A DNA stretch of 64,000 nucleotides from an uncultured Nitrospirales bacterium (GTDB lineage Bacteria; UBA10199; JADGCS01), in assembly GCA_964526915.1 (NCBI GenBank), contig CAZGMS010000072.1, positions 7,341 through 71,340 on the forward strand, given 5' to 3'. The translations under genes were made by a program, and so were the position numbers. Below the pieces are notes generated by a model. The model saw only the letters and a list, made by a program, of their open reading frames with translations, had not been told where the DNA came from and searched no databases. Each line of letters opens with the position of its first letter. The stretch's first letter is position 1. This document shows positions 4,547 through 59,187 of this stretch, one piece after another.

Positions 4547-4591
4547 AATGATCAGTGCCTCAATTTTAGGATATTAGTCAAACATCAGCCA

Positions 4592-17215: not shown

Positions 17216-17226
17216 GTATTATTATT

Positions 17227-18183: not shown

Positions 18184-18198
18184 TGGAGGTGCCCTTTA

Positions 18199-19089: not shown

Positions 19090-19129
19090 TTTTTCATCCC
19101 CCTAATGGTTCATCCATCTGTTTTCTTGT

Positions 19130-20005: not shown

Positions 20006-20020
20006 CCTTTTTAGTTCTGT

Positions 20021-20551: not shown

Positions 20552-20593
20552 GGCATATTAGGCATCTTGAAAATACAGATTAAAGCACGGCTA

Positions 20594-32340: not shown

Positions 32341-33206
32341 GTATTTTCCAAAACCCTCAATAGATATTCACCGTAACCAGATTTTAACAATGGCTGCGCA
32401 AGTTGCCTGAGTTGCTTGGCAGAAATGAATCCCATTCTGTAGGCGATTTCTTCTATGCAGGCAATTTTCAGACCCTGTCGATCTTCAATAGTTTTTATAA
32501 ACATCGCTGCATCGGCCAAAGAAGCATGAGTGCCCGTATCTAACCAGGCAAAACCTCGCCCCAACATGCGCACATTCAGTTTGCCTTGGGCCAAATAGGC
32601 AGTATTGACGTCTGTGATTTCCAGTTCCCCCCGAGGAGAAGGCTTGATTGTTTTTGCAATTTTAGCGGCCACATTGTCATAAAAATACAATCCCACAACG
32701 GCATAATTTGATTTGGGTTGCTCCGGCTTTTCCTGCAAAGAAATGGCTTTCATATTTTTGTCAAATTCAACTACTCCATAGTTCTGAGGATTGTTGACAT
32801 AATAGCCAAATATTGTTGCGCCGTTCACGTTCACTGAAACATTTTTCAGCAATCCCTGAAGCCCATCGCTGTAAAATATGTTATCTCCCAAAATCAGGCA
32901 AACAGAATCACCTGCAATAAAATTTTCACCCAAAATAAGAGCCTCCGCCAAACCACGCGGCTGTTCTTGAACTTTGTAGTTAAAAGAAAGTCCCAATTTA
33001 CTGCCGTCACCAAAAAGCATCTTAAATCGGGGAAGATCTTCTGGTGTGCTGATGATGAGAATTTCACGAATGCCAGCAAGCATAAGTGTGGAAAGAGGGT
33101 AATAGATGAGCGGTTTGTCGTACACCGGTAACAGCTGTTTACACGCTACTTGCGTTATTGGATACAACCTGGTTCCAGAGCCACCTGCTAAGATAATGCC
33201 TTTCAT
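32337..33206 (-). CDS. rmlA: glucose-1-phosphate thymidylyltransferase
   Basis: 289 aa. [18 protein letters not shown] and the LGDNIF motif. Canonical RmlA. Confidence 0.9.
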
Positions 33207-34816: not shown

Positions 34817-36966
34817 TGTGTTATTAGTAAAGTTTCTCTGGTTTTGATGGCTTCACTTACCAAAAAAGTCGCCTCTGTTGTGACAAAGATTTCATCAAGA
34901 GGGATAGGGTGTTGGTGCTTGTTGATCACAGCAGAGAAAAAAGCCAAAAACTCCTCCTGAAACCCCTTGCTTTGTTTGCCTTTCAGTTTTTTTCGGCCCA
35001 ATTTCCCAAAACATTCTGTACTCACAAAATCCTTCATTAAACACACAGACTCATCCACAAATATCTCGCCCTGTTCTTTGGGATGGTCACGAGATCCAAA
35101 CGATGTGTAAATAAAATTAGCCAGAGAACCATCTGAATACTCAATATTGATCGAAACATTGTCGGCGGCCTGTCGCTCTGCATTATCACCACCAACAGAG
35201 CAAGCTTGCACTGTCCGCGGCATAGCAGACAAAATATAACTGACAAAATCAATAAAATGACAAACTTCACCAATGATACGCCCTCCCCCCTTAATGGGAT
35301 CATGAACCCAGGAGTCATAAGGAATGTGCCCCGCATTGATGCGATAATTTACCACCGCGGGCGATGTTTTTTTCGCCAAATAGTCTCTCAAAAGCTTGGC
35401 ATGTGGCGAAAAACGCCTGTTAAACCCTACAGTCAATATTCCAGAGTGAATTTGAACAGCTTGTTTGATGGCTTCCAATTCGTCCCTGTTCAACGCAAGG
35501 GGTTTTTCTACAAAAACATTTTTTCCCGCCTCTAGAGCCTTTACAACCAATCCGGCATGAGAATCATGACGGGTCGCAATCACAACGGTATTGATTCGTG
35601 GGTCAGCAAAAAGTTCGGCAGAATCCGTCGTGACGTACTCAAATCCTGTTTTTTTTGCGACTGCCGTGATATCAATTCCTGTTGTGGCACAAAGACATCT
35701 GAGTGAAATGTGATTTTGTTTTTGCAAAGCAGGCAACAACACAGCTTTTGCAAAATTGCCCATGCCAATCATACCCACGACACAATCGGTTACCTGATGG
35801 TTCTGTCCACAAATCACTTTGCGTTCTGGGACTCTCGTCGTTCCGTCAGATTTGCCATAACCAATCACAATACCCAAATACTCACTTTTTTCCCTGCCCA
35901 ACAACAAATCGTAGGCCTTGAGTCCTTCGGCAATATCATACTCATGTGTGATCATCTTGGAAGGAGTCACATGGCCATCGGCAATCAAATCCAAAAAGAA
36001 CTCAATGTTTCGTTGTTCAGTCCAACGCACATAGCCATAAGGATAATCATGCCCCTTTTCTTCATAATTGGTATCATAGCGTCCGGGCCCGTAAGACATG
36101 CTCAGTTTGAAATCCAGTTCCTTTTTGTAAAACACATCCCTGGGTATGTTCATTCCAACCATGCCCGTCACCACCACTTTGCCCTTATGACGCGCAATCT
36201 GGCCTGCCAGCTCAACAGGCTCATTGGAATTCGTTGCCGCTGTGATGAGAACGCCATCAACACCATTTCCCTTTGAAAAAGCATCGCATGTGGCCACAAG
36301 ATTGTCCTTAACCACAGAATCAGCCCCAAGCTCTTGCGCCAATGAACAGCGTCGTGCATCAGGGTCAAAACCCACCACTTTGGCACCACTGGCTTTCAAA
36401 ATTTGTACAGCAAAAAGCCCAAGCAAACCCAATCCCATCACACAAACAGTTTCACCTACCCTCACATCACATTGCCTGACACCCTGCAGGGCAATCGCAC
36501 CCACCGTTGCACAGGACGCATCCCTAAAAGAAACCTTGTCGGGAATTTTGACCAGCAGATTTTTTGGTACATAATTGAACTCCGCATGGTTCGCATAACC
36601 TGCCCCTGCGCAGGCCACACGATCACCATTCACCAACCCCTTGACCCCTTGTCCAACCTCCACCACCACACCAGCACACGAATAGCCCAAAGGAATAGGC
36701 TGATCGAGTTTGGCCTGTACCTTTTCCCAGGTTTCAAACAATCCCTCAGTCTTAATTTTTTGAATCACTTTTTTGACCTGATCAGGCATGGCACAGGCCT
36801 TGCCCAATAAATTTTTCTGGGCAAACGACACCAACATTTTTTCGGTACCTGATGAAATAAACGAATGATGTGTTTCAACCACAACGCCTTCCGGTTTGAG
36901 TATGGGTACAGGCACGTCCGCCAACCAGATTTCTCCTGTTTTGAATGACTGAATAATTTGTTTCAT
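34813..36966 (-). CDS. bi-domain oxidoreductase (N-terminal zinc-type MDR alcohol dehydrogenase + C-terminal Gfo/Idh/MocA NAD(P)-binding domain)
   Basis: N-terminal half is MDR-like (GYSCAGVVVEVG ... VCVMGLGLLGLFAVQILKASGAKVVG). C-terminal half has the Gfo/Idh/MocA Rossmann (VGMIGMGNFAKAVLLPAL ... EKPLAL). Start moved to MKQIIQ at 36966 to avoid a 52-bp overlap. Confidence 0.7.
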   Translation of the reverse strand: MKQIIQSFKTGEIWLADVPVPILKPEGVVVETHHSFISSGTEKMLVSFAQKNLLGKACAMPDQVKKVIQKIKTEGLFETWEKVQAKLDQPIPLGYSCAGVVVEVGQGVKGLVNGDRVACAGAGYANHAEFNYVPKNLLVKIPDKVSFRDASCATVGAIALQGVRQCDVRVGETVCVMGLGLLGLFAVQILKASGAKVVGFDPDARRCSLAQELGADSVVKDNLVATCDAFSKGNGVDGVLITAATNSNEPVELAGQIARHKGKVVVTGMVGMNIPRDVFYKKELDFKLSMSYGPGRYDTNYEEKGHDYPYGYVRWTEQRNIEFFLDLIADGHVTPSKMITHEYDIAEGLKAYDLLLGREKSEYLGIVIGYGKSDGTTRVPERKVICGQNHQVTDCVVGMIGMGNFAKAVLLPALQKQNHISLRCLCATTGIDITAVAKKTGFEYVTTDSAELFADPRINTVVIATRHDSHAGLVVKALEAGKNVFVEKPLALNRDELEAIKQAVQIHSGILTVGFNRRFSPHAKLLRDYLAKKTSPAVVNYRINAGHIPYDSWVHDPIKGGGRIIGEVCHFIDFVSYILSAMPRTVQACSVGGDNAERQAADNVSINIEYSDGSLANFIYTSFGSRDHPKEQGEIFVDESVCLMKDFVSTECFGKLGRKKLKGKQSKGFQEEFLAFFSAVINKHQHPIPLDEIFVTTEATFLVSEAIKTRETLLITQ

Positions 36967-36968
36967 AG

Positions 36969-38132
36969 TCACGATTTCCTTGTCATTACAGGTTGTACAA
37001 ACGACAAACAATCCACCCACCCCTGAACATAAGTGTGAATGTTGTATCTGTTATTAATGATATCCTGAGCATGGCTTTTCAGACGTTGTTTGTACGGCTG
37101 ATCCTCACACATTTTTTTCAAATAACCACACAGGCGTTCTTCATTCAGGTCTTCGTCAAGAACGCCATTATTTTTATTGATCAGATCAACCTCACACCCA
37201 TCTCCCGCCGTTGCAATGACCGGTACCCCATGTAGCAATGCGTCAGATATGGCCAATCCTCCCAATCCAGGCAAAACCATTACATCGGCCTTGAAAAAAT
37301 ATTGTGAAACCCCATCCCTCTGTTCTCCAACAAATTGAATATTCCTGATGTTCCATTCACGCGCCAAAGAGCGTAACCTGGCATCGTCCTCTCCCTTGCC
37401 AACAATCAACAAGCACACTTCTTGAGACACAAATTTTTCCAGTTCCGCAAAGGCCTTCAACAAAACATCCACTTTTTTCTCTTTCGTAAGAACCCCAACA
37501 TACAACACCACAAAATCAAACCGAGAATGAATGTCTCTGTAAAGAAGGGAACGGTCAAAACAAGCCATATCCTTGAGTCGTTGCTCGGTATCCACAACAT
37601 TCAACGCCACAAAGATTTTATGGGAATCAATACCAAGGCGTTCATAATACGCTTTGCCCACAGAACTGTAAGTCAAACAGGCCTCTGAACGACGCTCTAA
37701 AAAGTGAATGATCGGATCCATGACTCTACGATGCCATGATTTTTTGCGCTTGCTGATTTCACCCAGACTCCACTGAACAACTTTGCGTCTGAACAGCCAA
37801 GCATAAAATTGGGCTTGCATGCCATTGAGAAAATTGGAGGCCCCCTTTACAACAACCACATCGGGTGAGAACCTGAGAAGTTCAATAAACACAAACGGAC
37901 TGAATGACGAGTAACCTTTTCCATTTGATGTGCTGATCCGAATGGGTATTGAAAACATTTCTTTTGATGCAAAGCTATGCGATTTTTTTGAATTAACAAG
38001 CTTAGTGCCTTTCACATCACAGCCATGAAATACTTTGATGTGCAAACTTTCAACCTGACTCAAGCGTTCGTAAACTGAGACCCGGTAATCTTGAATGACA
38101 CGAGGCAATATGGCAACACGCATTTTTGTCAT
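36969..38132 (-). CDS. glycosyltransferase, GT4 family
   Basis: 387 aa. C-terminal GT4 motif region (GLGGLAISDALLHGVPVIATAGDG). Confidence 0.7.
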   Translation of the reverse strand: MTKMRVAILPRVIQDYRVSVYERLSQVESLHIKVFHGCDVKGTKLVNSKKSHSFASKEMFSIPIRISTSNGKGYSSFSPFVFIELLRFSPDVVVVKGASNFLNGMQAQFYAWLFRRKVVQWSLGEISKRKKSWHRRVMDPIIHFLERRSEACLTYSSVGKAYYERLGIDSHKIFVALNVVDTEQRLKDMACFDRSLLYRDIHSRFDFVVLYVGVLTKEKKVDVLLKAFAELEKFVSQEVCLLIVGKGEDDARLRSLAREWNIRNIQFVGEQRDGVSQYFFKADVMVLPGLGGLAISDALLHGVPVIATAGDGCEVDLINKNNGVLDEDLNEERLCGYLKKMCEDQPYKQRLKSHAQDIINNRYNIHTYVQGWVDCLSFVQPVMTRKS

Positions 38133-39124
38133 GCAGACACTATCCTTTTAACGTCAGAAAAAGATAATGTCTTTGTTTCCAAAAGCAGGGTTTTTAACGC
38201 CTGATGAGTCTTTGCTGTCCACAACTTGGGATGATGCACCCACACTTGAAATAACCGTTTTTTTTGTCTGCCTTTTTTGAGTTGTTTCATGACCAAATCA
38301 ACACTAGCCAAATCAAGGGTAGATGACCTCAATTCAGACAATAGTAATCGTAAAATTTGTTTTGCCAACGGCTTGGGCTTACGCAATCCCTGACCATCAC
38401 CACAACGAGCGCTCCTGCGCATTTGGAAATAATTTTTTAACAAGGTCCTTCCTGAAATCTTCACCGAAGTCATGGGTACTTCAAAAAACTTACCCAGTTC
38501 TTGTGGCAAACACGGATCATTTTCAAAACGCCAGTAATCTTTTTCCTGCGGTGCTTTTGTAAAATCATATGCTGCTTGCTCGTTATCATTGTTTGCAATC
38601 CCTGGCCGCACACTAAAATCATAGTGCAAACCCTGTGATAACATGTGATTCTTCAGTTCTTGAAACGGCTGAACACACCAGCCACCAGCCCTGAAGGCCT
38701 GCACTTTGTATGCTGGACAAACTTGCTGGACAATCTCTTCAATCATCTCCTTGCCACTTGCAATCAAAGCACCTCTCTCGCGCTCACCCAAGGATTGTAA
38801 CCGGTATCTCTCGTGAGTCTTGAATGTCCACTCGTTACCATTTAGCGGTACAGCATCAAGCCATTGTGGATGCAAATGCAAACCAAAATCATGGCCCGCT
38901 TTTGCCATCTCAATGATTTGTGCCCTGACTTTTTCAAAATCAGGGTGTCGTTGTGCAACAAGATGCAAAAGGTAGCTGGCATCAATAAAGAAGATGCCTG
39001 TCGCATTGTGTTCTTTCAATATCTGTAAAATAGCAGATGTCGGTTCAAGGAGACATTTCTGTGCTGTCCCGCTATGAGCACCCAAAAAAAGCTCATAATC
39101 AAATGTGAGAACAATCTGATTCAT
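38129..39124 (-). CDS. polysaccharide deacetylase family protein (CE4-like, TFDYE subtype)
   Basis: 331 aa. N-terminal LTFDYE motif and His motif GHDFGLHLHP. Confidence 0.5.
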   Translation of the reverse strand: MNQIVLTFDYELFLGAHSGTAQKCLLEPTSAILQILKEHNATGIFFIDASYLLHLVAQRHPDFEKVRAQIIEMAKAGHDFGLHLHPQWLDAVPLNGNEWTFKTHERYRLQSLGERERGALIASGKEMIEEIVQQVCPAYKVQAFRAGGWCVQPFQELKNHMLSQGLHYDFSVRPGIANNDNEQAAYDFTKAPQEKDYWRFENDPCLPQELGKFFEVPMTSVKISGRTLLKNYFQMRRSARCGDGQGLRKPKPLAKQILRLLLSELRSSTLDLASVDLVMKQLKKGRQKKRLFQVWVHHPKLWTAKTHQALKTLLLETKTLSFSDVKRIVSA

Positions 39125-40118
39125 GTGATCGTGCTCTTTCTTGATCGATAATGTCGCCTGTATATTTCAACCCCCTGGCATAGGCATTCAGTTTGGCCGT
39201 GGCTGTGAACAACTTATAGCGCAAGGGTTTCAAAGGGTATTTCCACAAATAGCCCACCTTCAGCTGGCCTCCAAAACGCGATTTGAACCGCTGAATACTT
39301 TCCTGCCTGGAGCCTGGTAGCGGCGACATTCTGGCACCCATAAAATCATACACAAGCACTCCGTGCGCCTTCATGTCCAACATGATCTTCCACTGCAAAT
39401 AATTCATTGCTCCCAAACTTGGTCCTTCAATACTGCCACCATGCAAATAATATGCAGAGCTCCCTGCTTTCCAAATCACAACGGCACAACCCTGACTTTT
39501 ACCATTTTTTTTTGCCACATAAAATGAAACTTGGTCTCCCAACTCGGCGGCCAACCTCATTAATTCACCTTTCCTTGCCCACGGGAGGGATTGTCGTTGC
39601 ATGGTCTGTTGTATCAAACGTGCACATTCATCCAGATATTCAGTCCCTGATACAATTTGCACTCCCTCCGCCATTGCCTTTCTGATGACATTTCTATGTT
39701 TGTGATGGAGCCCGGCAAACAAATCACTTTCCTGTGCTGTCAAATCAACTTGGAATGAACTGAACTGGCAATGAATGGAGTTTTGAGGACACGCACGAAA
39801 AACGGCGGAGGTATGCGGCTGATAGATAAAATCAACATTCAGTTGTTTTGACAACTCAACGACCTCACCTAAAAAGAGTCTCTCCGCCTCTGCTGATACC
39901 GGCTCCACAAACACAGTAGCGGAAGGAAAAACCAGTCTGTTAAAAAAAGCCCTGCGCTCAACAACATAGGGCAGTATCATTTGGTCAGACACAAACCAGC
40001 CGTATTCACCCGATGAACGAGCCTTCAAATAGCCCTCTGTGGCCACAATAGGAAGAGGCGTCAATAAGACAGGTTCTGTTTTTTCAATTTTGATCAACAA
40101 AGTTCTCAACTTTTGCAA
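39099..40118 (-). CDS. FemAB / CelD-like GNAT-fold acyl- or aminoacyl-transferase
   Basis: 339 aa. C-terminal RFKSRFGG motif and the overall length and pattern of FemAB-family (Acetyltransf_6-like) proteins that recur in EPS loci. Confidence 0.5.
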   Translation of the reverse strand: MQKLRTLLIKIEKTEPVLLTPLPIVATEGYLKARSSGEYGWFVSDQMILPYVVERRAFFNRLVFPSATVFVEPVSAEAERLFLGEVVELSKQLNVDFIYQPHTSAVFRACPQNSIHCQFSSFQVDLTAQESDLFAGLHHKHRNVIRKAMAEGVQIVSGTEYLDECARLIQQTMQRQSLPWARKGELMRLAAELGDQVSFYVAKKNGKSQGCAVVIWKAGSSAYYLHGGSIEGPSLGAMNYLQWKIMLDMKAHGVLVYDFMGARMSPLPGSRQESIQRFKSRFGGQLKVGYLWKYPLKPLRYKLFTATAKLNAYARGLKYTGDIIDQERARSHESDCSHI

Positions 40119-41172
40119 ACAAATACTTCATGCGCTCGGAATGGTCTTCGATGGGCAGTTCCACAACACAACCTGATATTTTTTCGGCACACGGAAAATT
40201 TGAAGTGTCTTCGGTCAACAAAGCATAACCCATACCGACATGAATCTGCATGGCCAGCATGTATCTATAAAAACTTTGTGCCACCTGCCTGGTCTCAAAA
40301 CAAAGAACGATTTTATGCGGTGCAGACTGACCCCGAATAGCCTTGATGATTCTGAATTTCTTGCCATCAGAAAATTTGTTCATAAATGCATCGTGATATT
40401 TTTTTCGAAAAGCAAATGCTCCTCCCAACATACCGTGTACAGTCCCTCCCAAAAAACATTCCTCAAAAGAACCAAAACCATCATTGTAAAGAAAATGGGC
40501 GCGTTCCAAAAAAACATTCAATATATTCAGAATCCAAAGACAACAGGACCAATAACTCCAAAAAAAATCTTTTTGCCTTCCATACCTAAACAGCAACCAT
40601 CTCACAAAATGCACCAATGGGTGATGAGTCAGTTTCCAATCATAATCCAAATTATCTGTCCAAAAGAAGCCCCCCATGGCACCGGGAGTGGCCTTGCCGG
40701 GACCAATAGAAAACAATCCTGCATTGCCAAATGTTCCGAGAAAGCGACCATCCAACACAGCACCAAAACTCTGCGCTGAGTCATCAATCAGAAACGCCCC
40801 ATTCCCTTTACAAATCAATTCAATGTCACTCATGCTGGCGGGATTGCCATACAAACTGGGAGCTACCAACGCTGATACATCGTTTTCCTGCAAACATTTT
40901 TTGATGCTTGCCACTGATGGGTTGAGATCCTCCTCGTCGCAATCAAAAAAAATGGGGGTTAATCCCAGACGTCTGAGAGGAACTAATAATGACCCACAAG
41001 CGTACGCGGGCAAAGCAACATTGCCCTTTGCCGAAAAAGACCTCAGAGCATGATAAATACCAGCTTTGCCACTTGCGGCATAATGCCAATCCTTACCCGT
41101 TATCTGATTGAGTTTTGGTAAATCAAGGGGGCACTCATCAACAAAAGGCGGCCTAAACTTGGCTATTTTCAT
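40084..41172 (-). CDS. DegT/DnrJ/EryC1/StrS-family aminotransferase (third copy)
   Basis: 362 aa. Small-domain GKAGIYHAL, large-domain DDSAQSFG, and the putative Schiff-base lysine in FSIGPGKATPG. Confidence 0.6.
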   Translation of the reverse strand: MKIAKFRPPFVDECPLDLPKLNQITGKDWHYAASGKAGIYHALRSFSAKGNVALPAYACGSLLVPLRRLGLTPIFFDCDEEDLNPSVASIKKCLQENDVSALVAPSLYGNPASMSDIELICKGNGAFLIDDSAQSFGAVLDGRFLGTFGNAGLFSIGPGKATPGAMGGFFWTDNLDYDWKLTHHPLVHFVRWLLFRYGRQKDFFWSYWSCCLWILNILNVFLERAHFLYNDGFGSFEECFLGGTVHGMLGGAFAFRKKYHDAFMNKFSDGKKFRIIKAIRGQSAPHKIVLCFETRQVAQSFYRYMLAMQIHVGMGYALLTEDTSNFPCAEKISGCVVELPIEDHSERMKYLFAKVENFVDQN

Positions 41173-42419
41173 AAAAACAGTTCTTCGTACCTTTGAGTCA
41201 AGTGAGGGATATCAAAGTTGTCAAAATCGCATGATGGCATTTTTGCAGACAAATAATCTTCTTTCATTTGTTTGAGGGTCTTAATGATATCATCTACATC
41301 ATAGCGGGCCACATAATGCCCCTTCACCTTCAGCAATTCATACAATTCACCACCATTTGAAATCAGGAATATTTTTCTTCGAGTGGCCATGTAATCAAAG
41401 ACTTTTGTTCCAAAGGCATAGGGATACATTTCGGCATTAATACTCAAACCAAAACTGTAAGTTGGCATATTGGCCGAGATTTGCTTCAAGGGGGTTTCTG
41501 AATAACGGTGAAAATATTTACTGAACACGGCTGAGTCTCTCATTACGCTGTACAGTGCATCCTGGTCTTTGCCAAAGATATCCACCGTAAAATTATTTTG
41601 AAAATATTCATCTTGCATCTTATTCAGGGCAGAACACAAAAGGGTAAATGCGGGTATTCGCGAATCCGGGATATTGCCTATGTAAATCATTTTAAAGTCT
41701 GCCAAGCCCGGGTTTATGATGGCACAGCCATAATCATCAACATCATAACCATTGTGAATACAGACAAACTTTTTTGAAAAAGATCCATAGGTTTTCTTCA
41801 TTCTATGCAAAATGTCATTTGTGGGAAATACGATGACATCCGAATAAATCATCGATACAATTTCCATATAAACTGATTTTTCCTTCTGCCAAAAATAATT
41901 CAATTTTTTTAAATACTGGTAATCAACATCATCGTTCCAGGAATCACGATAATCTTGAATCAAATGAATCTCTGGATTTTCAATTTTAAGAAATGCGCTG
42001 GTATAATGAAGAGAACTCGGAGGCCCTGTGACCACAACGTTTTTAATGTGGTGTTCTTTGATGACGGCCCGGGCACAGGGAATCAGTTTTGAGCCCCATC
42101 TTTGGGCAGGATCCAAGTAGTACATCGTCTTCATGAGAACAAACCGTAAAAATTTTCGAAAATACCTTCCCAAAATATTTTTTGATGATGATGACAACAG
42201 CCACATAGGGTAATTGGCTGAAATCCTGTGAACATGAATATTTTCGTGTTGAACATCTGTTCCCCAATTTACATTCCCTTTTTTTGAACATTTGGTTGTA
42301 ATCACATGGACCACATAGCCCCTTTGGGCCAAATATTTAGAGAATTTTGCCCAACGGCGCGTACCCACACCCCCCATAGGGGGGAATTTAAACGCAATCA
42401 CTAGTAATTGTTTTTTCAT
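41169..42419 (-). CDS. glycosyltransferase, GT4-like (GT-B fold)
   Basis: 416 aa. N-terminal Glyco_trans_4-like segment FKFPPMGGVGTRRWAKFSKYLAQRGYVVHVIT. C-terminal FGTKVFDYMATRRKIFL resembles the GT4 E-x7-E region. Confidence 0.55.
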   Translation of the reverse strand: MKKQLLVIAFKFPPMGGVGTRRWAKFSKYLAQRGYVVHVITTKCSKKGNVNWGTDVQHENIHVHRISANYPMWLLSSSSKNILGRYFRKFLRFVLMKTMYYLDPAQRWGSKLIPCARAVIKEHHIKNVVVTGPPSSLHYTSAFLKIENPEIHLIQDYRDSWNDDVDYQYLKKLNYFWQKEKSVYMEIVSMIYSDVIVFPTNDILHRMKKTYGSFSKKFVCIHNGYDVDDYGCAIINPGLADFKMIYIGNIPDSRIPAFTLLCSALNKMQDEYFQNNFTVDIFGKDQDALYSVMRDSAVFSKYFHRYSETPLKQISANMPTYSFGLSINAEMYPYAFGTKVFDYMATRRKIFLISNGGELYELLKVKGHYVARYDVDDIIKTLKQMKEDYLSAKMPSCDFDNFDIPHLTQRYEELFL

Positions 42420-42430
42420 TTTCCCACGTT

Positions 42431-43795
42431 TTATGTTGCTGTTAAGATATTTTCAAAACATTCCTTCCATCCTGGCCACCCCAAATCTGAAAACATTGTA
42501 TTATGAGAAAGAAGGGTAAAAATCCCCTGGTACTTTTTAACCTGCTCTTTTAACTTGCTAAGACCACCATGCACGACTTCCATATCACGCATACCCTGAT
42601 ATTTGTAAAATGCCCCATCCATTGCTACCAAGGGCAACTCTCTTAAGCGAAGTTTTTTTTGCGATAGGATATTGAAAACTGGGTAATCCTGACACACACC
42701 GCACCTGAACCCAGCCATCTCAGGGTATCCTAACGTGGAATCAACTGCCATCCCATTATCTTCCCAAATCTGCCACGTTGTGGGCACCTCAAATTTCAAA
42801 TAGTGCTGTCTCCCAGATTGAACGCCCTCCCAGCCCTGATTTGCCAAGACTTGATTCAATCTCTGCTTTTCGATTTTCCACTTGTTTCCATCATTACATG
42901 TATCATAGCCCGGGTGAAATCCAATCACATGTTCATTCTCCCTGATTATCCTCAAATTGTGCTCGGCAAACACGGTATCCAATCTATATCCCGAATCACG
43001 CCTGCTTTTGACAGCAGACATGAAATTAAATTGGATGGTCGCATCACATCGCCTTCCCATATCGACCAATTCAGAGTAAAGATCATAGGGATCCTTGTTG
43101 CCAAAATGTCTACAAGACAAACTGCCCACCATACTCTTTGAAGCCGCTCTCAGACTTTTATTAAGAAGAAGATCACCGCCTACTCTACGAATCAGACCCC
43201 AGACATCTTGGGGATAATAGGTCAATATATCCACATCAATACTGGGAGCCATACGATAACGACTGTGCTTTTTCTGTGCCTGCCCATCCAAATGATGAAT
43301 CATCCGAAACAACATTTGAGCATATTCATGCACTATGGGCCGTTCCAAGAAACCCTGTTTGACTGCAAGCGACTGATCTGCAGGAAATCGGCCATGAATA
43401 TCGCGAATGAGATTAACGTGTTCCTCCCACCTCGTCAGCATGAAAAAAGATGACGCAAAGACATCGACACCACAGATGATTCGGTCTGACGACACAGAAC
43501 ACTCATCAGTACCAAAAATAGTGGGCAAAGGAGCCTTATCAACAAACTGGTTATCAACAAATGAGGTGCGAGAAGGGATGTTGCGATTATCCAAATAGGT
43601 AACATCAGAACAAAACTGGTTGAAAAAGTTATCCCTCACTACAATGATTTTTCGATTTTCCAATACAATTTCATAATCCTTGATTGGTCTGGCACAGACA
43701 CAGACATCAATCCCCAATAATTCCCTAAAAAGAACCTCAATAACATATTCCCGTTCGGCTACATGGTTGTCCGGAATGTTGATAACAATACCCAT
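42431..43795 (-). CDS. hypothetical protein; C-terminal half weakly CE4 / deacetylase-like
   Basis: 454 aa. No confident motif in the N-terminal roughly 250 aa. The C-terminal IGFHPGYDT ... HNTMFSD His/Asp pattern is reminiscent of the two CE4-like proteins elsewhere in the locus. Confidence 0.25.
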   Translation of the reverse strand: MGIVINIPDNHVAEREYVIEVLFRELLGIDVCVCARPIKDYEIVLENRKIIVVRDNFFNQFCSDVTYLDNRNIPSRTSFVDNQFVDKAPLPTIFGTDECSVSSDRIICGVDVFASSFFMLTRWEEHVNLIRDIHGRFPADQSLAVKQGFLERPIVHEYAQMLFRMIHHLDGQAQKKHSRYRMAPSIDVDILTYYPQDVWGLIRRVGGDLLLNKSLRAASKSMVGSLSCRHFGNKDPYDLYSELVDMGRRCDATIQFNFMSAVKSRRDSGYRLDTVFAEHNLRIIRENEHVIGFHPGYDTCNDGNKWKIEKQRLNQVLANQGWEGVQSGRQHYLKFEVPTTWQIWEDNGMAVDSTLGYPEMAGFRCGVCQDYPVFNILSQKKLRLRELPLVAMDGAFYKYQGMRDMEVVHGGLSKLKEQVKKYQGIFTLLSHNTMFSDLGWPGWKECFENILTAT

Positions 43796-43796
43796 T

Positions 43797-44522
43797 CTAA
43801 ATTCTTTCTCTCCTAGAACCCGATAACCAACGACTTAGTAGTAACCGACTTTGTCTGGCTATTTTGATACAAGTTCTTCTTTTGATGGCCTTGATCAATT
43901 GTGATTTATCAATATCACTCATCAATGTTTTTTTTGATTTGATCATGACCATACCGCCCGTTTTCACTGCACTCAGAAACTCGCCGTGTTGATTCAAAAC
44001 AACAATGCAATTTTCCAACTCATTCAAAGAATGAGCATCACCCGCATAACACATACCCTTGCCGTGTTTTTTGGCCAAATCCATTGCCCGTATATTGTCG
44101 ACATTTCGACATCTTGCATTAAACACCTCAATCATATCCACATCTTCCGCAAGCTGATTGATATTTTTATGACCTACATACGGGTGTGGCAACAACAATA
44201 ACCCTCCTTGCTCCCGAACTTCTCGAACAAATGCAGCATATTTGCGAGACTCAATTTCTTTATGAATTCCCATGGCAATCACATCACCATATTCTGTTTG
44301 ATATTCGGCAGAAAGAGGCACTTCAATATTGAGATGATTTTCATTGCAATGCTTCTTGAGTGCCAGCGAACCTTGGATGCTGTCGTGATCCGTCAATACT
44401 AAGAAATCGAGTTTCTGCGCATTGGCCCAGCGAGCCAACCGGGGAATCGACATCACAGAATCATACGAATAGGCTGAATGACAATGAAAAATACCCTTAC
44501 GATTCATACTGGCCATGCACAC
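43797..44522 (-). CDS. PHP-domain metal-dependent phosphoesterase
   Basis: 241 aa. HCHSAYSYD and LTDHD motifs typical of PHP (polymerase/histidinol-phosphatase) domain proteins such as CpsB-type phosphatases. Confidence 0.5.
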   Translation of the reverse strand: MCMASMNRKGIFHCHSAYSYDSVMSIPRLARWANAQKLDFLVLTDHDSIQGSLALKKHCNENHLNIEVPLSAEYQTEYGDVIAMGIHKEIESRKYAAFVREVREQGGLLLLPHPYVGHKNINQLAEDVDMIEVFNARCRNVDNIRAMDLAKKHGKGMCYAGDAHSLNELENCIVVLNQHGEFLSAVKTGGMVMIKSKKTLMSDIDKSQLIKAIKRRTCIKIARQSRLLLSRWLSGSRRERI

Positions 44523-45645
44523 AATACTTCACAAATGTTTTGGCAAAGTGCCCTGCCATTTTTATAGTGGGGCGAATATCCGACAGTTGACAGTTATTTT
44601 TTACACGCAAACACAGAGTATCTTTGATCACCCCACACATGGCCTTTGGTCTGAGCATACCGTACATGATGTCGCCATTGAATGGCCAAGTGTACCTGAG
44701 TTTGGATTTTCTGCAAACATCGATCGCAGGTTGCTTACCCAAATGCAGATCCACCATCATTTGCGGGAAATTCACCCCCGCAGAAATGGCAAGCTCAATA
44801 GATCCCCAGAGTTTGGCGTTAATTTCCATCAAAAAGGGACGACCTGATTCATCGACCTTGAATTCGACCATGGCCAAACCATGCCACTGCAAAGCATCCA
44901 AAATTTGTTTTCCGTACTCTGCCACCAATGGATTGAAACCAGTTTCAGCCGCCACACTGCGGCCTCCGCTGGGTGGCATTTCACGAATTCTGCGGTGCTG
45001 AAATGTCACACAACATTTGCCATGATCATACAACGCAAAAAAACCACACCCGTATCCCTTTATGTATTCCTGTAACATCGGTAACAAAGACCCTTCCAAG
45101 TTGTGCTTTTCACACAGCGCATGATACTTGCCCAAAAGATCCCTGTGATGCTCAACATAATCGATCACGTTAACACCCGCTTCCTGCTTTCCCTTGATCA
45201 CAAGGGGGAATTTCAGGGTAGCTCCCAATACTGAGATTTCTTCCCTGTTAAGCGGGTAAAAGGTTTTGGGATAAGGAACACCTATCTTTTCAGCAAGCGC
45301 GTACGTTTTTTCTTTTGACATGGCAACATCGATCTTTGATGCTTCAGCAATCACAATGTCAGAACACAGCCTGATCTCATCCTGCAATTCACTCATGATA
45401 CTGTTGGCCTTGGCACCAACAGGCATGACCATGTCTATCTGATATTGTTTTAAAATATCCAGAAAGGTTTGGTTAAACTCCGGCAGTTCATATTTGGGGA
45501 CAATAATTTCATCAGCGCAATATTTTGACAACGCCGCCAATGAACCGGGCCTATGACTCATCACATAGACTGTGTGGCATTCCTTACCCAAAGCCCTCAC
45601 CACGCCGAGCGTGTGTGTGTAGTTTCCATCTGAAACCAATATTTT
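44497..45645 (-). CDS. ATP-grasp domain protein (second copy)
   Basis: LQEYIKGYGCG and FLMEINAKLWGS ATP-grasp motifs. Start moved to MKILVSDG (45645), which abuts the upstream methyltransferase gene. Confidence 0.6.
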   Translation of the reverse strand, partial: KILVSDGNYTHTLGVVRALGKECHTVYVMSHRPGSLAALSKYCADEIIVPKYELPEFNQTFLDILKQYQIDMVMPVGAKANSIMSELQDEIRLCSDIVIAEASKIDVAMSKEKTYALAEKIGVPYPKTFYPLNREEISVLGATLKFPLVIKGKQEAGVNVIDYVEHHRDLLGKYHALCEKHNLEGSLLPMLQEYIKGYGCGFFALYDHGKCCVTFQHRRIREMPPSGGRSVAAETGFNPLVAEYGKQILDALQWHGLAMVEFKVDESGRPFLMEINAKLWGSIELAISAGVNFPQMMVDLHLGKQPAIDVCRKSKLRYTWPFNGDIMYGMLRPKAMCGVIKDTLCLRVKNNCQLSDIRPTIKMAGHFAKTFVKYCVHGQYES

Positions 45646-46406
45646 CATTTGTGAAGAATAAGAAAATAAAATGCTGAACAACGTGGAATCGCAGTTGCCA
45701 AAAATCTGTCCAGCTTATTGAATAGTGCAAATAAGCCACAACGACCTAACACGCGCAACACAGTACTCCAACACAAAAACAGACAAGTGCCATTTGTTTC
45801 CATAATCTTGAAACCCGCATTGCTTACAAGATTTTCGATATCGTGTGCTGAAAACTGCCAATGACAGAATGATTCCGGAGACACCTCTTTGCGATGTAGC
45901 TGTTTTTCGCGTCTCCAATATAAACTATTTTTATTGGGCATGGAAAAAATGATCTTACCATCATTTTTTAGGACACGGCGCAACTCATCTAAAGCCTTGG
46001 GTCTGTTTTCCACATGTTCAATCACTTCACTGCATATGATCAAGTCAACACTATCGCTCTCCAAAGGAATTTCTGTCAAATCTGCTATGACAATTTCTAT
46101 TTTATCCAAGAGTTCTGGATACTTTTCAAAATTCTTTCTCATCCGCACCACTTCTTCCCTTGAAGATTCAAGGGCCACAACACGAACAGCCACTTTACTT
46201 GCCAAATAAGTATTTGGCCCTTTTCCTGCCCCCGCATCCAGAACTGTCCTGGCAGGATATGTTTTCAGATACTGATTGATCAATGTGACCCGTTGACGAT
46301 GTTGATAGCGCCAAACGGAAAACTGATCACCGTAATCATGAAAATCATCCATGAAAGGCAACGGATAGGCATTGGCAATATCGTCAGATTGTGCAACATT
46401 CCACAT
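45645..46406 (-). CDS. class I SAM-dependent methyltransferase
   Basis: 253 aa. Motif I VLDAGAGKGPN and motif II DLIICSEVIEHV. Confidence 0.7.
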   Translation of the reverse strand: MWNVAQSDDIANAYPLPFMDDFHDYGDQFSVWRYQHRQRVTLINQYLKTYPARTVLDAGAGKGPNTYLASKVAVRVVALESSREEVVRMRKNFEKYPELLDKIEIVIADLTEIPLESDSVDLIICSEVIEHVENRPKALDELRRVLKNDGKIIFSMPNKNSLYWRREKQLHRKEVSPESFCHWQFSAHDIENLVSNAGFKIMETNGTCLFLCWSTVLRVLGRCGLFALFNKLDRFLATAIPRCSAFYFLILHK

Positions 46407-46414
46407 GGACTCTG

Positions 46415-47155
46415 TTATTCCCTTTTGATGATGATGGCGTGTCCATTCAAATTATGAATGACCACGCGATCATTTTTTTGCATCTGCTCATTCACATACT
46501 GTGTGATCCCCGAGCATCCACTAAAACCAAAATCATCGTAAACGATCATGCCACCGGGAACCAATCTGTCCCAGATCCAATCTACAACCCCTTTTGCTGA
46601 TTCGTACACATCAACATCTATGTGGCACAATCTAAATTTTTCATCTGCCACAAGAACTCCTGTCTGGTCCGGAAAAATTCCTTGAAGAACTTTTACATTG
46701 GCGTAGGAAGCCACCTTCTTTAATAAACATGTCACTAGTTCCTTCGATGTATCTGCATGCTCGCCACCTTTGTATGTGGTGTCATGGACCCCCGCTTTGA
46801 CCACACCGGAGAATGTATCACACAAATACACTTTTTCCCTGATGCCACAATCGGAGGCCCGTCTGGCCAAAAGAGCACCGGTCCCTCCACGCCACACACC
46901 AATCTCTATGATGCTTCCCCCACTCAATTTGGCACACTGGGCCACCAACGCGTACAATTCAAAACACCTATATTTGTCCACCAATGTGTGATCTTTGATC
47001 TGGCCATACAGTGTGATGAATTGTTGATCAGTATTCCAAGGGGCATAGGTAGCCTTGGGGATGATCGTTTCGTATTGGGCATCGCTGGTAGTCACAGTAC
47101 GAAGCATTCGAAATCCAAAATGATTTAGAATATTCTTAATGTGTGTTTTGAACAT
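46415..47155 (-). CDS. TylF / MycF-family (macrocin O-methyltransferase-like) SAM-dependent methyltransferase
   Basis: 246 aa. GSIIEIGVWRGGTG glycine-rich loop and the DxDxY-type metal-binding segment (HIDVDVYES) characteristic of this family. Confidence 0.65.
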   Translation of the reverse strand: MFKTHIKNILNHFGFRMLRTVTTSDAQYETIIPKATYAPWNTDQQFITLYGQIKDHTLVDKYRCFELYALVAQCAKLSGGSIIEIGVWRGGTGALLARRASDCGIREKVYLCDTFSGVVKAGVHDTTYKGGEHADTSKELVTCLLKKVASYANVKVLQGIFPDQTGVLVADEKFRLCHIDVDVYESAKGVVDWIWDRLVPGGMIVYDDFGFSGCSGITQYVNEQMQKNDRVVIHNLNGHAIIIKRE

Positions 47156-47159
47156 GTCA

Positions 47160-49046
47160 TTACTCGCTAACAGACCAGACCTTTTTCCACAAATAAAGAG
47201 AATACAAACGGCTTACCAAAGACCAATCCTTGATCTTGTTTTGCGTATATTTTTGATAATATGCATATATTTTTTTATGATTCAAAAAAGAAAACAAGCC
47301 ATTCAGATGAATATCATTAAACACACTATCAAAATTCTCTTTCAAACCCGTTTTTTGCCACAGAATTTCTGGCAATTCAAAACCAGTTTTATCGCTTCTA
47401 TTTAGAATACTCTCAGGCACCTTGCCTTGTGCTATGGTTCTCAATATTTTTTTGGAAACACCTTCATGAATTTTTTTGTCATCACCAAGGGAAAATGCTT
47501 TCTCCACCAGACGATAGTCCAAAAAAGGCAGGCGACTTTCCAAGGAAAATCGCATGGAGTTGCGATCTTCGTATCTCAAGTATTCTCTCAAGGCTGACAC
47601 CACAAGGTTGTTCCATTGCTGATTCTTTAATCTGCTGGTATATTTTTTTTGCGTCTTGACACTCTCATAATTCGTAACAAAAATATCATGCTTGTTTTTT
47701 GGTCTATAAATATCTGACAAAATCTTCGTGAAGACATTCGCACAAGTACGCAGGCAAGATAGATTTCTTGTCGTGCAGTAGGCACGCAGTTCTCTCACAA
47801 AACTCCCAAACTTTAACCTCAAAAGCAAGTCTGACAAGTAGGTATAATGATATTCCGTATAGCCCGTAAAAATTTCATCAGCACCCTGTCCATTCAACAA
47901 GACTTTTACATGACTGTTCTTTTTAATGTATTCATAAATCAGATATTGGGAATAAACAGCCAGGCCTCTCCACGGCTCTTCATGCACATACACCAGTTCA
48001 TTTAATTTTTCGATCAAACCTTCCGTTTGTGGATAAACAAAATGTTTTTCCAATTTGATGTTTCTTGTTTGAAACTCATCAATGTATTTTTTTTCACTAA
48101 AAGCCTCGTCGTCAAACACAACTGAAAATGTTTTAAATGCTCCAACATATTGTTCTGCATCAATCAGTCCCAAAATGGTGCTGGAATCAATGCCACCACT
48201 CAATAGTGAACCCACTTCCACATCTGACCGCAAACGCAATCGAATAGAATCTTTGAGAATGTTTTCTATTTCTAGTTGGGTGGCTTGAGGATGATCATGC
48301 ATTTTCCAATAGCTGTAAGTTGTTAATCCTGCTCTTGAAAACTCACAATATGTGCCTGGCTCAATTTGCAAAACATCCCTAAACATCGTCTGCTGAGTGT
48401 GATCCGAATAGCTGTACCTCAAATACTGACACACCATCTCACGATTGACATATAGTTTATCGAAAAACGACGATATAAACTTGATTTCACTTCCAAAGAT
48501 CAGATTATCATCAACAAAGGAATAATAAAGCGGCTTTATTCCAAATCTATCACGCGTAAGTGTGAGTTGATCTTTTTGGCTATCGTAAATAGCGGCCGCC
48601 CACATCCCGTTGAACCTGCAAAAAGCCTCCGTACCCCAACAATGAAAGGCCTTCAGGAACACCTCTGAATCAGCACTGGTGGTGAAACAATAACCTTGGG
48701 ATTTAAGCACTTCCCTGATTTCAATGTAGTTATATATCTCTCCATTATACACAAGACACAACCCTTCATAGCGATAAGGTTGGTGCCCCAAAGGAGTCAG
48801 ATCAATGATACTCAGCCTCCTGTGTCCCATAATGAGTCCGGACTTGTCTTTGTTAACAATGTGTTCATAACCAGCAAGTTCTTTGACGGTATCATCCCCT
48901 CTTAAGGCCTCAATAGTCTTATCATAGTTTTGATAAACAAATCCTTCATCATCAGGTCCCCTGTGTTTTAGTTTTAGGTGTGCCTGATAGAACCGTTTGG
49001 GATCAACTGTATTTTGATATGAAAAAAAACCAGATACGCCACACAT
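47160..49046 (-). CDS. asparagine synthase (glutamine-hydrolysing)-type amidotransferase (AsnB / WbpS-like)
   Basis: 628 aa. N-terminal MCGVSGFF (Cys2 class II glutaminase nucleophile), and the central SGGIDSS PP-loop ATP pyrophosphatase motif. Confidence 0.85.
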   Translation of the reverse strand: MCGVSGFFSYQNTVDPKRFYQAHLKLKHRGPDDEGFVYQNYDKTIEALRGDDTVKELAGYEHIVNKDKSGLIMGHRRLSIIDLTPLGHQPYRYEGLCLVYNGEIYNYIEIREVLKSQGYCFTTSADSEVFLKAFHCWGTEAFCRFNGMWAAAIYDSQKDQLTLTRDRFGIKPLYYSFVDDNLIFGSEIKFISSFFDKLYVNREMVCQYLRYSYSDHTQQTMFRDVLQIEPGTYCEFSRAGLTTYSYWKMHDHPQATQLEIENILKDSIRLRLRSDVEVGSLLSGGIDSSTILGLIDAEQYVGAFKTFSVVFDDEAFSEKKYIDEFQTRNIKLEKHFVYPQTEGLIEKLNELVYVHEEPWRGLAVYSQYLIYEYIKKNSHVKVLLNGQGADEIFTGYTEYHYTYLSDLLLRLKFGSFVRELRAYCTTRNLSCLRTCANVFTKILSDIYRPKNKHDIFVTNYESVKTQKKYTSRLKNQQWNNLVVSALREYLRYEDRNSMRFSLESRLPFLDYRLVEKAFSLGDDKKIHEGVSKKILRTIAQGKVPESILNRSDKTGFELPEILWQKTGLKENFDSVFNDIHLNGLFSFLNHKKIYAYYQKYTQNKIKDWSLVSRLYSLYLWKKVWSVSE

Positions 49047-49114: not shown

Positions 49115-50425
49115 TTAGGCACAAAACAGACCCAGATTCACCATAAATATCAATAAGTACACAGAAAATACTGTCACTCTGTACCTACAACTCATATATT
49201 GTGCTGCTACGGATTGCATGATTAACGAATAAATAAAAAGTCCTGCGAAGCTTGCAAAGGCGGATCCAACAACACCATAGGGGAGTATCAAATACCAATT
49301 TAATAAAGCATTAACCCCAAAGGAAACAAAAGCTATCACAGGATAAATCCAAACTCTCTTATGATAACCCAATACAAGAGCAGGAATTTTATAAAAACCG
49401 CCCATCATAAATCCAGCCATAACAAATGGCATCACTGTTGCAGATTCAGAATATTTTTCATTTGAAATAAGTGCGACCAAAACAGGACTTAAAAATGAAA
49501 CAATAATTGTTATGACAATGAGCCCTGCATAATACAAGTAAGAAAATTTTTCTAATTCTGCCTTGGCTTTTACATAATCACTGATCATGTCATTAAATAC
49601 TTTTGGCAACATGGCCTGCGATACTGACTCATACACAATGGATAGACCTCTGCCGAGCATATATCCCAATGTGTAAATACCAACCGCTGTATTGCCGATG
49701 TAATGTTTCAGAAAAATTCTATCAAGGTACAGGAATGCAATGCCCTGTGTCATAGAAATCATCCCAGGCAACGACAACAAAAAAGTTTCCTTTGCCATCA
49801 ACCTGTTAAAAACCAATCTTATTTTAAATAAATTATTTTTTGCAAACTCTTTTAACAAAGAATAAATATTTACACCGTAACCAATGCCCTGCCCGCTTAT
49901 TCTGCCAAGGATACCTAAATTGAATACTGATATTAAAATAAATGATGTCGCATGATTAACAAGCGTTTGAAATATTGAATGCTTAAGAACAGATGTGGAC
50001 TTGTGTTCATTGTATAAAATTCTTGTAAAAAATGAAACATACACTGAGGCAATGCCAGTACCCAATGTCACCATATAAATTGTACGGGTTTTTATGGCTA
50101 TCCAATCAGAGATCAAGGGCATAAAAATCAATCCAATTATCAGTACCAATGCTGCTTGAAATGTGAGAAACCATAAAATCGTACTTAAATATTCATCGCG
50201 ATGCGTTTTTCTATAGTCAAAATAAAATCGGGTAGCACTGCTATCAAGATTCAACGATGCCAAGGTCTTGATGTACTCAAACATAACCAGGTACATCGCC
50301 AACACACCATAGTCGGCTGGTGTGAAAACGAACGTATAATATTTTGTCATGAGCACCGTGGCAACCGCCGCAATGAGTGATCCTGTAAAAAATTTTGGTG
50401 CGTGTTGAAAAACAACTTTGAACAT
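49115..50425 (-). CDS. Wzx-like oligosaccharide flippase (MOP superfamily, second copy)
   Basis: 436 aa with about 12 TM helices. N-terminal TPADYGVLAMYL mirrors the PST-family pattern seen in the first wzx. Confidence 0.6.
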   Translation of the reverse strand: MFKVVFQHAPKFFTGSLIAAVATVLMTKYYTFVFTPADYGVLAMYLVMFEYIKTLASLNLDSSATRFYFDYRKTHRDEYLSTILWFLTFQAALVLIIGLIFMPLISDWIAIKTRTIYMVTLGTGIASVYVSFFTRILYNEHKSTSVLKHSIFQTLVNHATSFILISVFNLGILGRISGQGIGYGVNIYSLLKEFAKNNLFKIRLVFNRLMAKETFLLSLPGMISMTQGIAFLYLDRIFLKHYIGNTAVGIYTLGYMLGRGLSIVYESVSQAMLPKVFNDMISDYVKAKAELEKFSYLYYAGLIVITIIVSFLSPVLVALISNEKYSESATVMPFVMAGFMMGGFYKIPALVLGYHKRVWIYPVIAFVSFGVNALLNWYLILPYGVVGSAFASFAGLFIYSLIMQSVAAQYMSCRYRVTVFSVYLLIFMVNLGLFCA

Positions 50426-55393: not shown

Positions 55394-55394
55394 T

Positions 55395-56645: not shown

Positions 56646-56667
56646 GGTAGCTTCCTCCTATGATGAT

Positions 56668-57489: not shown

Positions 57490-57518
57490 AGTTTACCTCT
57501 CCACTCTGATAGGGTTAA

Positions 57519-59147: not shown

Positions 59148-59187
59148 CTTTTAACCACAATATTTATCAGTTATCCTGACAAGGAAA

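Follow-up and report, generated by a model that had tools for sequence, protein, structure and literature searches.

The 64,000-nucleotide window analysed here, a stretch of contig CAZGMS010000072.1 from an uncultured Nitrospirales bacterium, is a single co-directional array of glycan genes on the minus strand. Nine tightly packed, co-directional minus-strand open reading frames (ORFs) at 39099-49046 encode a block of tailoring enzymes, among them a FemAB-like transferase, an ATP-grasp ligase, a PHP-domain phosphoesterase and an AsnB-type amidotransferase. The block is made of two units: a backbone that contains cassette B (DegT-like protein, FemAB-like transferase and a CE4-type deacetylase), and cassette A (ATP-grasp ligase, PHP phosphoesterase and a VimE-like deacetylase) within a five-gene insertion. 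We favour, with some reserve, the reading that each cassette first removes the N-acetyl group of an amino sugar and then N-acylates the sugar anew, which would make the region a cytoplasmic glycan-tailoring segment of two modules resembling the Wbp/Vim pathway.

Gene content and organisation of the block

The nine ORFs and the two genes that flank them are as follows.

49115..50425, minus strand: Wzx-type flippase, 436 aa (Pfam Polysacc_synt, 59.9 bits)
47160..49046, minus strand: AsnB-type glutamine-dependent amidotransferase, 628 aa (Asn_synthase 210 bits, GATase_7 131 bits)
46415..47155, minus strand: TylF-family S-adenosylmethionine (SAM) methyltransferase, 246 aa (PF05711 TylF 69.4 bits, cut-off 23; Methyltransf_24)
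45645..46406, minus strand: class-I SAM methyltransferase, 253 aa (Methyltransf_11 75 bits; Methyltransf_23, _25 and _31)
44497..45648 (ORF to 45681), minus strand: ATP-grasp carboxylate–amine ligase, 383 aa as called (PF15632 ATPgrasp_Ter 44.9 bits, cut-off 29.1)
43797..44507 (ORF to 44522), minus strand: PHP-domain metal-dependent phosphoesterase, 236 aa as called (PF02811 34.9 bits, cut-off 26.4)
42431..43795, minus strand: VimE-like sugar N-deacetylase, 454 aa (DUF7033 95.7 bits)
41169..42419, minus strand: GT4-like putative glycosyltransferase, 416 aa (Glyco_transf_4 31.2 bits, cut-off 28.5)
40084..41172, minus strand: divergent DegT-family pyridoxal phosphate (PLP) enzyme, 362 aa (PF01041 77 bits, residues 33-174 only)
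39099..40097 (ORF to 40118), minus strand: FemAB-family transferase, 332 aa as called (PF02388 FemAB 46.5 bits, cut-off 24; Acetyltransf_6 38.4 bits)
38129..39124, minus strand: second CE4-type deacetylase, 331 aa (Polysacc_deac_1 24.9 bits, cut-off 23.1)

All nine ORF products in the block pass the Pfam gathering cut-offs, and their homologs are full length with 40-55% identity, which marks the genes as real and intact and speaks against chance ORFs. The genes lie on one strand with overlapping stops and starts, and a promoter and terminator scan gave nothing above shuffled controls. Every enzyme family that the initial annotation had listed for this region is present in its place and in an intact gene; the list had omitted the GT4-like gene at 41169-42419. 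Family memberships, intact catalytic motifs, conservation of the cassettes and domain fusions are all observed here.

The region had been taken as one unit bounded by 39099 and 49046, and neither the unity nor the boundary is borne out. The genes Wzx–AsnB–GT4-like–DegT-like–FemAB-like–CE4 form a backbone that is contiguous in related metagenome loci. In locus L111 (4509-12998) the Wzx (62% identical), AsnB (56%), GT4-like (41%), DegT-like, FemAB-like and CE4 genes follow one another directly, and L110 has the same series with no DegT-like match. Compared with L111, the window carries five extra genes between AsnB and the GT4-like gene, namely TylF methyltransferase–class-I methyltransferase–ATP-grasp–PHP–VimE-like (42431-47155). 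The insertion is scarless and shows no GC anomaly. The TylF gene, which is its first gene, is lacking in L111; there AsnB and the GT4-like gene lie next to each other. The Wzx protein is 59-64% identical to those of L103, L106, L108, L110 and L111, which head the same gene series, and AsnB is 56-57% identical to its counterparts in L110 and L111. A homolog of the CE4 gene at 38129-39124 stands directly downstream of the FemAB-like gene in 68 of the 80 metagenome loci with a FemAB-like relative. The functional unit spans from the upstream start of Wzx (49115-50425) to the end of the CE4 gene at 38129, beyond the former boundary on both sides.

The exact FemAB-like and ATP-grasp subfamilies of the window did not co-occur in any of 160 related loci searched by tblastn. 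The idea drawn from this count, that the two cassettes never meet, was dropped when ORF clustering detected joint operons in distant relatives: FemAB–DegT–deacetylase–ATP-grasp(–PHP) operons are present in at least 10 of the 80 ATP-grasp loci, in lineages of the Deltaproteobacteria, Zixibacteria, Steroidobacter, Nitrospira and Thiodiazotropha, with the deacetylase of the Polysacc_deac_1 family. Taken together, these operons make the five enzyme types a recurrent toolkit. The remark of the initial annotation that a FemAB-like and an ATP-grasp enzyme in one locus are not a standard feature thus holds for the exact subfamilies, and does not hold for the wider families.

It is possible, if rather doubtful, that the two modules have no common product, and that the block is a mosaic of tailoring genes for different sugars or glycans of a 64-kb multi-glycan array, joined by modular shuffling. 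The window encodes two Wzx flippases and two initiating transferases as well as many distinct sugar pathways, each cassette is found alone elsewhere, and the five-gene insertion is absent from the nearest relatives. The tight packing on one strand, the stop/start overlaps and the lack of any terminator signal above chance argue otherwise, and the joint operons suggest cooperation on one product. Shuffling of this kind would bear only on whether the modules share a product, leaving the chemistry proposed for each module untouched.

Cassette A: a VimE-like deacetylase with an ATP-grasp ligase and a predicted phosphatase

The reference system for the deacetylase is that of Porphyromonas gingivalis, which produces a 2-N-seryl-3-N-acetylglucuronamide (Veith et al. 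2020, PMC7468200). There the di-N-acetyl uronic acid is made by WbpA, WbpB, WbpE and WbpD, the CE4 protein VimE is the proposed remover of the 2-N-acetyl group, and WbpS, an AsnB-type enzyme, makes the uronamide (PMC7468200). The serine is added by VimA, a FemAB/TIGR03019-like protein, whose Tannerella forsythia counterpart adds glycine; when VimA is exchanged between the species, glycine is incorporated in place of serine (PMC7468200; PMC13086638). The transferase is likely to be VimF (PMC13086638).

The 454-aa protein at 42431-43795 had been left as hypothetical, with a domain analysis proposed. By its domain profiles and structural model it is predicted to be a VimE-like cytoplasmic sugar N-deacetylase, with an N-terminal DUF7033 domain and a C-terminal CE4-type barrel. 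It matches the NCBIfam model NF053580 (UDP-2,3-diacetamido-2,3-dideoxy-α-D-glucuronate deacetylase VimE) over its full length with E=1.7e-42; the score of 145 bits is far under the equivalog cut-off of 440, so the membership stands at the family level only. Its AlphaFold2 (AF2) model has a predicted local distance difference test (pLDDT) score of 91.2, and the best Foldseek neighbours among solved structures are CE4-type enzymes, namely 3rxz and 3s6o (putative polysaccharide deacetylases), PuuE, the N-deacetylase domain of human NDST1, an insect chitin deacetylase, IcaB and a CE4 esterase. PDB sequence searches, with the protein alone or as a profile, were not significant. Seven residues do not vary within the family: D187, D189, H289, H294, H331, D352 and H431. 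No signal peptide is present, and the enzyme should therefore act on cytoplasmic precursors. Homologs about 40% identical occur in Niallia, Sulfurovum and C. blaseri in FemAB-like–DUF7033–GT4-like triads, and these triads adjoin complete or near-complete WbpA/B/D/E sets.

The closest VimE-like homolog (43% identical) lies in locus L006 (7956-11359), where a family-less 590-aa protein and a PP-binding carrier protein are encoded directly upstream of it, in the position that ATP-grasp–PHP takes in the window. This arrangement may represent a third, carrier-protein-based route of acyl supply.

The ATP-grasp protein gives an AF2 model with pLDDT 91.7, and the top 50 Foldseek matches listed are all ATP-grasp enzymes with probability 1.00. 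They include 2pn1, the top match, whose function is unknown, biotin carboxylases, PurK and RizA. The PHP protein has no significant match in PDB sequence searches, alone or as a profile; its residues H8, H10, D16, H41, E68, H108, H113, D157 and H159, the full metal-ligand set, are conserved across homologs.

The conservation of the cassette was surveyed in 80 species genomes that hold an ATP-grasp relative. The PHP gene lies immediately downstream of the ATP-grasp gene in 42 of these loci. ORF clustering finds an adjacent DUF7033-type deacetylase in 41, and tblastn finds one in 29. Loci with all three genes are spread over many bacterial phyla, and methanogenic archaea have the ATP-grasp–PHP pair as well.

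Domain fusions connect the same activities. Among 1.84 billion representatives (clusters at 50% identity), HMMER recovered 829 ATP-grasp relatives at E≤1e-30. Among the best 150 of them, at least 23 are 541-573 aa long, and all six of those tested carry a C-terminal DSPc (PTP-type) phosphatase domain; DSPc fusions are found in P0197 and P0202 as well. The ATP-grasp domain is fused to PHP in P0391 and P0490 and accompanied by an LMWPc (LMW-PTP) phosphatase domain in P0484, and P0474 is an ATP-grasp::GT4::Polysacc_deac_1 protein. The relatives with fused domains are P0197, P0202, P0391, P0394, P0404, P0406, P0414, P0431, P0445, P0474, P0484 and P0490. In locus L173 (3693-8157), the fused gene stands in the order Wzx–two sulfotransferases–[ATP-grasp::DSPc]–DUF7033–GT4. 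Fusion of the ATP-grasp domain to three unrelated phosphatase folds and to GT4 plus CE4 indicates that these activities belong to one pathway, and since the three folds fill the same position, a phosphomonoesterase step appears to be the obligatory partner of the ligase. The PHP protein is accordingly a predicted phosphatase, with DSPc or LMWPc in its place among the relatives.

Xenorhabdus budapestensis DSM 16342 carries the cassette in a cluster with the order WbpA–WbpB–WbpD–WbpE–Wzx–ATP-grasp–PHP–DUF7033–Wzy–unknown–GT–AsnB-like (L013:4699-18546). No FemAB-like gene is present in this cluster. Its 342-aa gene was considered as a FemAB-like candidate and rejected, with only two short collinear motifs that are common to it and the GT4-like protein of the window. 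Because X. budapestensis has the full Wbp set and DUF7033 beside ATP-grasp–PHP without a FemAB-like gene, ATP-grasp–PHP takes the place of VimA there. Ca. Arsenophonus nilaparvatae (L012) likewise has ATP-grasp–PHP–DUF7033 in a compact, O-antigen-like WbpA/B/D/E cluster.

The literature on DUF7033, and on ATP-grasp together with a PHP domain and a polysaccharide deacetylase, yielded no paper that describes cassette A. The ATP-grasp–phosphatase–deacetylase cassette is widespread and previously uncharacterised. Tentatively, we suggest that it could be an unrecognised, tRNA-independent means of N-acyl diversification, in which deacetylation is followed by ligation of a phosphorylated metabolite and by unmasking of a hydroxyl by a phosphatase of any of the three folds. 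O-phosphoserine and phosphoglycerate may serve as examples of such metabolites. Joined here to a FemAB-type aminoacyl transferase, the cassette could give a doubly tailored or peptide-like N-substituent.

The ligation might instead run as in the capsule of Campylobacter jejuni, where serinol phosphate or ethanolamine phosphate is joined to glucuronate by the ATP-grasp domain of Cj1438C and the product is then dephosphorylated by Cj1435 (PMC11800379). A uronic acid would then be linked through its C6 carboxylate to a phosphorylated amine (ethanolamine phosphate, serinol phosphate or phosphoserine) before PHP acts, the VimE-like deacetylase would pair with the FemAB-like transferase, and the 331-aa CE4 protein would serve another sugar. 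This is the way in which the sole characterised glycan ATP-grasp and phosphatase pair works (PMC11800379). The VimE-like and FemAB-like genes are both in the window, and AsnB is often near cassette A (12 of the 80 loci, and 5 of the 18 long loci with all three genes). We nevertheless regard this orientation as unlikely. Cj1438C, which is TupA-like, and Cj1435, a HAD protein, are not homologous to the window proteins, and the FemAB-like transferase pairs with the other CE4 protein in 68 of its 80 loci and with a VimE-like protein in one. The sugar amine is favoured as the ligation site because the conserved and fused partner of ATP-grasp is an N-deacetylase, not a dehydrogenase (the P0474 fusion; adjacent DUF7033), because a UDP-sugar 6-dehydrogenase is adjacent in only 2 of the 18 long three-gene loci, and because X. 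budapestensis, without a FemAB-like protein, has no other enzyme to use the amine freed by DUF7033.

Cassette B, the remaining backbone genes and the surrounding window

The FemAB-like protein has the double-GNAT fold and the size of a double-GNAT protein. Its family profile matches in the PDB Staphylococcus aureus FemX (6snr, E=2.5e-11), the aminoacyl-tRNA-dependent peptide synthase 9wqy (E=4e-10) and Weissella viridescens FemX (1ne9, E=2.5e-5). A QRFKxRFG motif is invariant, with F271 and K272 identical in 14 family members. These two residues align with the F-K of S. aureus FemX; the alignment with FemX(Wv), in which the corresponding Lys305 is the key residue (PMC12945691), stops short of the region. 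The retention of this Phe-Lys motif of aminoacyl-tRNA-dependent Fem transferases agrees with the aminoacyl option of the initial annotation, which had predicted an aminoacyl- or acyl-substituted amino group. It can be aligned with the VimA-like protein beside DUF7033 in Sulfurovum (hhalign probability 97.4%, E=1e-11, 24% identity). That protein (L004:9039-10004) has RRSFG where the window subfamily and the true Fem transferases have RFKxRFG, and the motif difference suggests that the two subfamilies may use different donors.

That the FemAB-like protein is an acyl-CoA-dependent GNAT acyltransferase (CelD/BioF2-like), installing a short acyl group and not an amino acid, is the least probable of the alternatives: the Acetyltransf_6 match of 38 bits, the missing F-K motif in the VimA-like proteins beside DUF7033, the fact that tRNA dependence is yet to be demonstrated for any VimA-type enzyme, and a former description of VimA as a putative acetyl-CoA transferase (cited in PMC7468200) speak for it, but the best PDB relatives are tRNA dependent, the invariant RFKxRFG aligns with the F-K of FemX, and the VimA exchange switches the amino acid.

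The 331-aa CE4 protein is cytoplasmic. Its residues T7, D9, E11, H83, H85, D169 and H298 are invariant, comprising the TxDxE and HxH motifs, and all 13 homologs tested match Polysacc_deac_1. It has no PDB sequence match, alone or as a profile, and the CE4 assignment is therefore held with moderate confidence. No similarity is detectable between this protein and the VimE-like protein. In the 80 FemAB-like loci, a DegT-like gene lies upstream of the FemAB-like gene in 35, mostly directly, a UDP-GlcNAc 2-epimerase gene accompanies the cassette in 21, and ATP-grasp or PHP is found in none.

The alignment of the DegT-like protein with two sugar aminotransferases, 7b0m and 1o61, extends through the PLP lysine, and K160, D130/D131 and Q134 are invariant among 27 homologs. 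Its family match is confined to the large N-terminal domain (33-174), with a divergent C-terminal half. We considered that the DegT-like and FemAB-like proteins could produce an aminoacylated 4-amino-6-deoxyhexose by way of the nearby RmlA and RmlB, on the model of the Qui4N(Gly-Ac) sugar of Escherichia coli O121. As a general explanation this was rejected, with RmlA/RmlB accompanying the FemAB cassette in only 2 of 80 loci.

AsnB retains the N-terminal Cys2 (MCGVSG) and the SGGIDSS PP-loop in its translation. It scores 409 bits against TIGR01536, above the cut-off of 267, and 297 bits against TIGR03108, below the cut-off of 817; TIGR03108 is the family assigned to WbpS, WbqG and PGN_1234 (PMC7468200). 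It probably makes a uronamide, a WbpS-type role that we read from its context, and possibly converts an acetamido group to an amidine instead.

In L110 and L111 the gene that separates AsnB from DegT-like encodes a protein 40-41% identical to the GT4-like protein, and the gene after DUF7033 in L006 encodes one that is 30% identical. Relative to the VimE-like gene, the GT4-like gene sits where VimF sits relative to VimE. No significant PDB sequence match was found for the GT4-like protein. As for the methyltransferases, no NCBIfam model reaches its cut-off with the class-I enzyme, and a TylF gene is also near the ATP-grasp–PHP pair in L008.

Other groups of genes surround the block. Downstream of cassette B, at 33203-37020, are a GT1, a 735-aa ADH_zinc_N plus GFO/IDH/MocA bi-domain oxidoreductase and a heparinase II/III-like protein; the trio is syntenic in L106 (12028-17421), and L093 again has the GT1 and the heparinase II/III-like protein. 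Upstream of the block, four radical-SAM enzymes (two B12-binding, one SPASM) are encoded with a DegT protein and a methyltransferase at 53205-60594, which suggests C-methylation or other radical chemistry on a sugar. In L008, too, B12-radical-SAM and TylF genes occur together with the ATP-grasp–PHP pair.

Within the glycan locus, at 13513-21736, lies an organic-acid-type pathway. Its genes encode a thiamine pyrophosphate enzyme, PrpD/MmgE, an aldo-keto reductase, a family-less 296-aa protein, fumarase α/β-like subunits and a PF15617 C-C_Bond_Lyase (E=1e-108), together with a second ATPgrasp_Ter paralog (13513-14706) that is 23% identical to the ATP-grasp protein of the block. The product may be an unusual acid, amide-linked to an amino sugar. 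Several complete sets of glycan machinery are located at 1442-7042, 11869-13338, 21825-22901, 26222-27625, 49115-50425 and 62038-63111. They comprise two Wzx, Wzz, a Bac_transf/PglD-like/DegT/Polysacc_synt_2 starter set, a WecA-like GT4 initiating transferase, a PMT_2 GT-C enzyme and NeuB. The 64-kb array probably encodes two or more glycan units in tandem.

Proposed pathway and its relation to known systems

In the pathway that we propose, the 331-aa CE4 protein of cassette B would expose a sugar amine, and the FemAB-like transferase would move an amino acid onto it, probably from aminoacyl-tRNA, by analogy with VimE and VimA. In cassette A, the VimE-like deacetylase would expose an amine, the ATP-grasp ligase would form an amide with a phosphorylated building block, and PHP would then strip the phosphate. 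With glutamine as the donor, AsnB would amidate a carboxyl, or act on the acetamido group as mentioned above. The two methyltransferases would add methyl groups, the GT4-like protein would transfer the tailored sugar, and Wzx would flip the finished unit.

Several findings count against this pathway. A tblastn search of the 64-kb window with WbpA, WbpB, WbpD and WbpE of X. budapestensis gave no homolog of WbpA (UDP-GlcNAc 6-dehydrogenase) or WbpB, and only generic DegT and hexapeptide-transferase matches; thus the VimE-like enzyme may have another substrate here, or the genome may encode its synthesis outside the window, the contig being 73.5 kb long. Of 47 long loci with the ATP-grasp cassette, only 3 also have the full Wbp set, and none of the 26 long loci with the FemAB-like gene has three or more of WbpA/B/D/E. 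The score against the VimE model is low, as given above, and the FemAB-like protein, with its 24% identity to the VimA-like protein, is encoded two genes away from the VimE-like gene and not adjacent to it. The structural neighbours of the ATP-grasp model are generic and give no clue to its substrate. The pathway assigns no role to the DegT-like protein, and the GT4-like prediction, read from sequence, is the weakest assignment of the block. In this scheme we infer which substrates and which acyl and aminoacyl donors are used, in which direction the ATP-grasp enzyme ligates and how the steps follow one another.

N-acyl and amide decorations of surface glycans determine serotype and recognition by phages and the immune system, and it is by a sugar of this kind that secreted virulence proteins are covalently anchored in P. 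gingivalis. The present loci extend the Wbp/Vim logic far past the Bacteroidota, with at least two pairings of a deacetylase and an acyl-installing enzyme. The fusions of the ATP-grasp clade to three phosphatase folds, GT4 and CE4 give cassette A a concrete and testable mechanism. For experiments, the most suitable starting point is X. budapestensis DSM 16342, a culture-collection strain whose minimal O-antigen cluster contains cassette A.

Among known systems, the XrtA/PEP-CTERM exopolysaccharide trio of FemAB (TIGR03019), deacetylase (TIGR03006) and amidotransferase (TIGR03108) brings the same three enzyme types together in one glycan locus, and these three models are the best or second-best NCBIfam matches of the window proteins. 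Membership in the trio was rejected on the scores (44 vs 260, 25 vs 276 and 297 vs 817 bits), and Pfam scans of the window revealed no exosortase or PEP-CTERM gene.

The HS:2 capsule amidation of C. jejuni resembles the block in that an ATP-grasp amide ligase shares a glycan locus with a phosphatase and with PLP enzymes (Cj1436/Cj1437), and in the proposed dephosphorylation of a phosphorylated building block after its ligation. The likeness is functional only, the window enzymes being of the ATPgrasp_Ter/CPS-like and PHP types. In the window the third conserved partner is an N-deacetylase, and this favours a sugar amine over a uronate carboxyl as the ligation site.

With the FemABX proteins (W. 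viridescens FemX, S. aureus FemX/FmhB, DhpH-C and PacB), the FemAB-like protein has sequence homology, size and the Phe-Lys motif in common. It differs in its likely acceptor, which would be the de-acetylated sugar amine of a polysaccharide precursor and not the peptidoglycan stem peptide.

The Wbp/Vim pathway is the closest parallel. The window has a VimE-family DUF7033/CE4 deacetylase, a FemAB-like transferase and an AsnB amidotransferase, with a GT4-like gene directly after the deacetylase and all enzymes cytoplasmic, and the logic of de-acetylation followed by aminoacylation predicts an N-aminoacyl (uron)amide sugar. The uronamide and the aminoacyl-substituted amino group in the glycan predicted by the initial annotation match this precedent of P. 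gingivalis and T. forsythia, which it had not named; the uronamide part depends on the role that context gives to AsnB. The window differs in that its FemAB-like protein is of another subfamily, keeps the F-K motif and pairs with a different CE4 deacetylase, while the VimE-like gene is paired with ATP-grasp–PHP. The window has no type IX secretion system or sortase genes, and thus no evidence of a protein anchoring of that kind. We read the block as a variant of the Wbp/Vim type of tailoring, with N-acyl and amide groups on a surface glycan, and it includes a member of the large and uncharacterised ATP-grasp–phosphatase–deacetylase cassette family.

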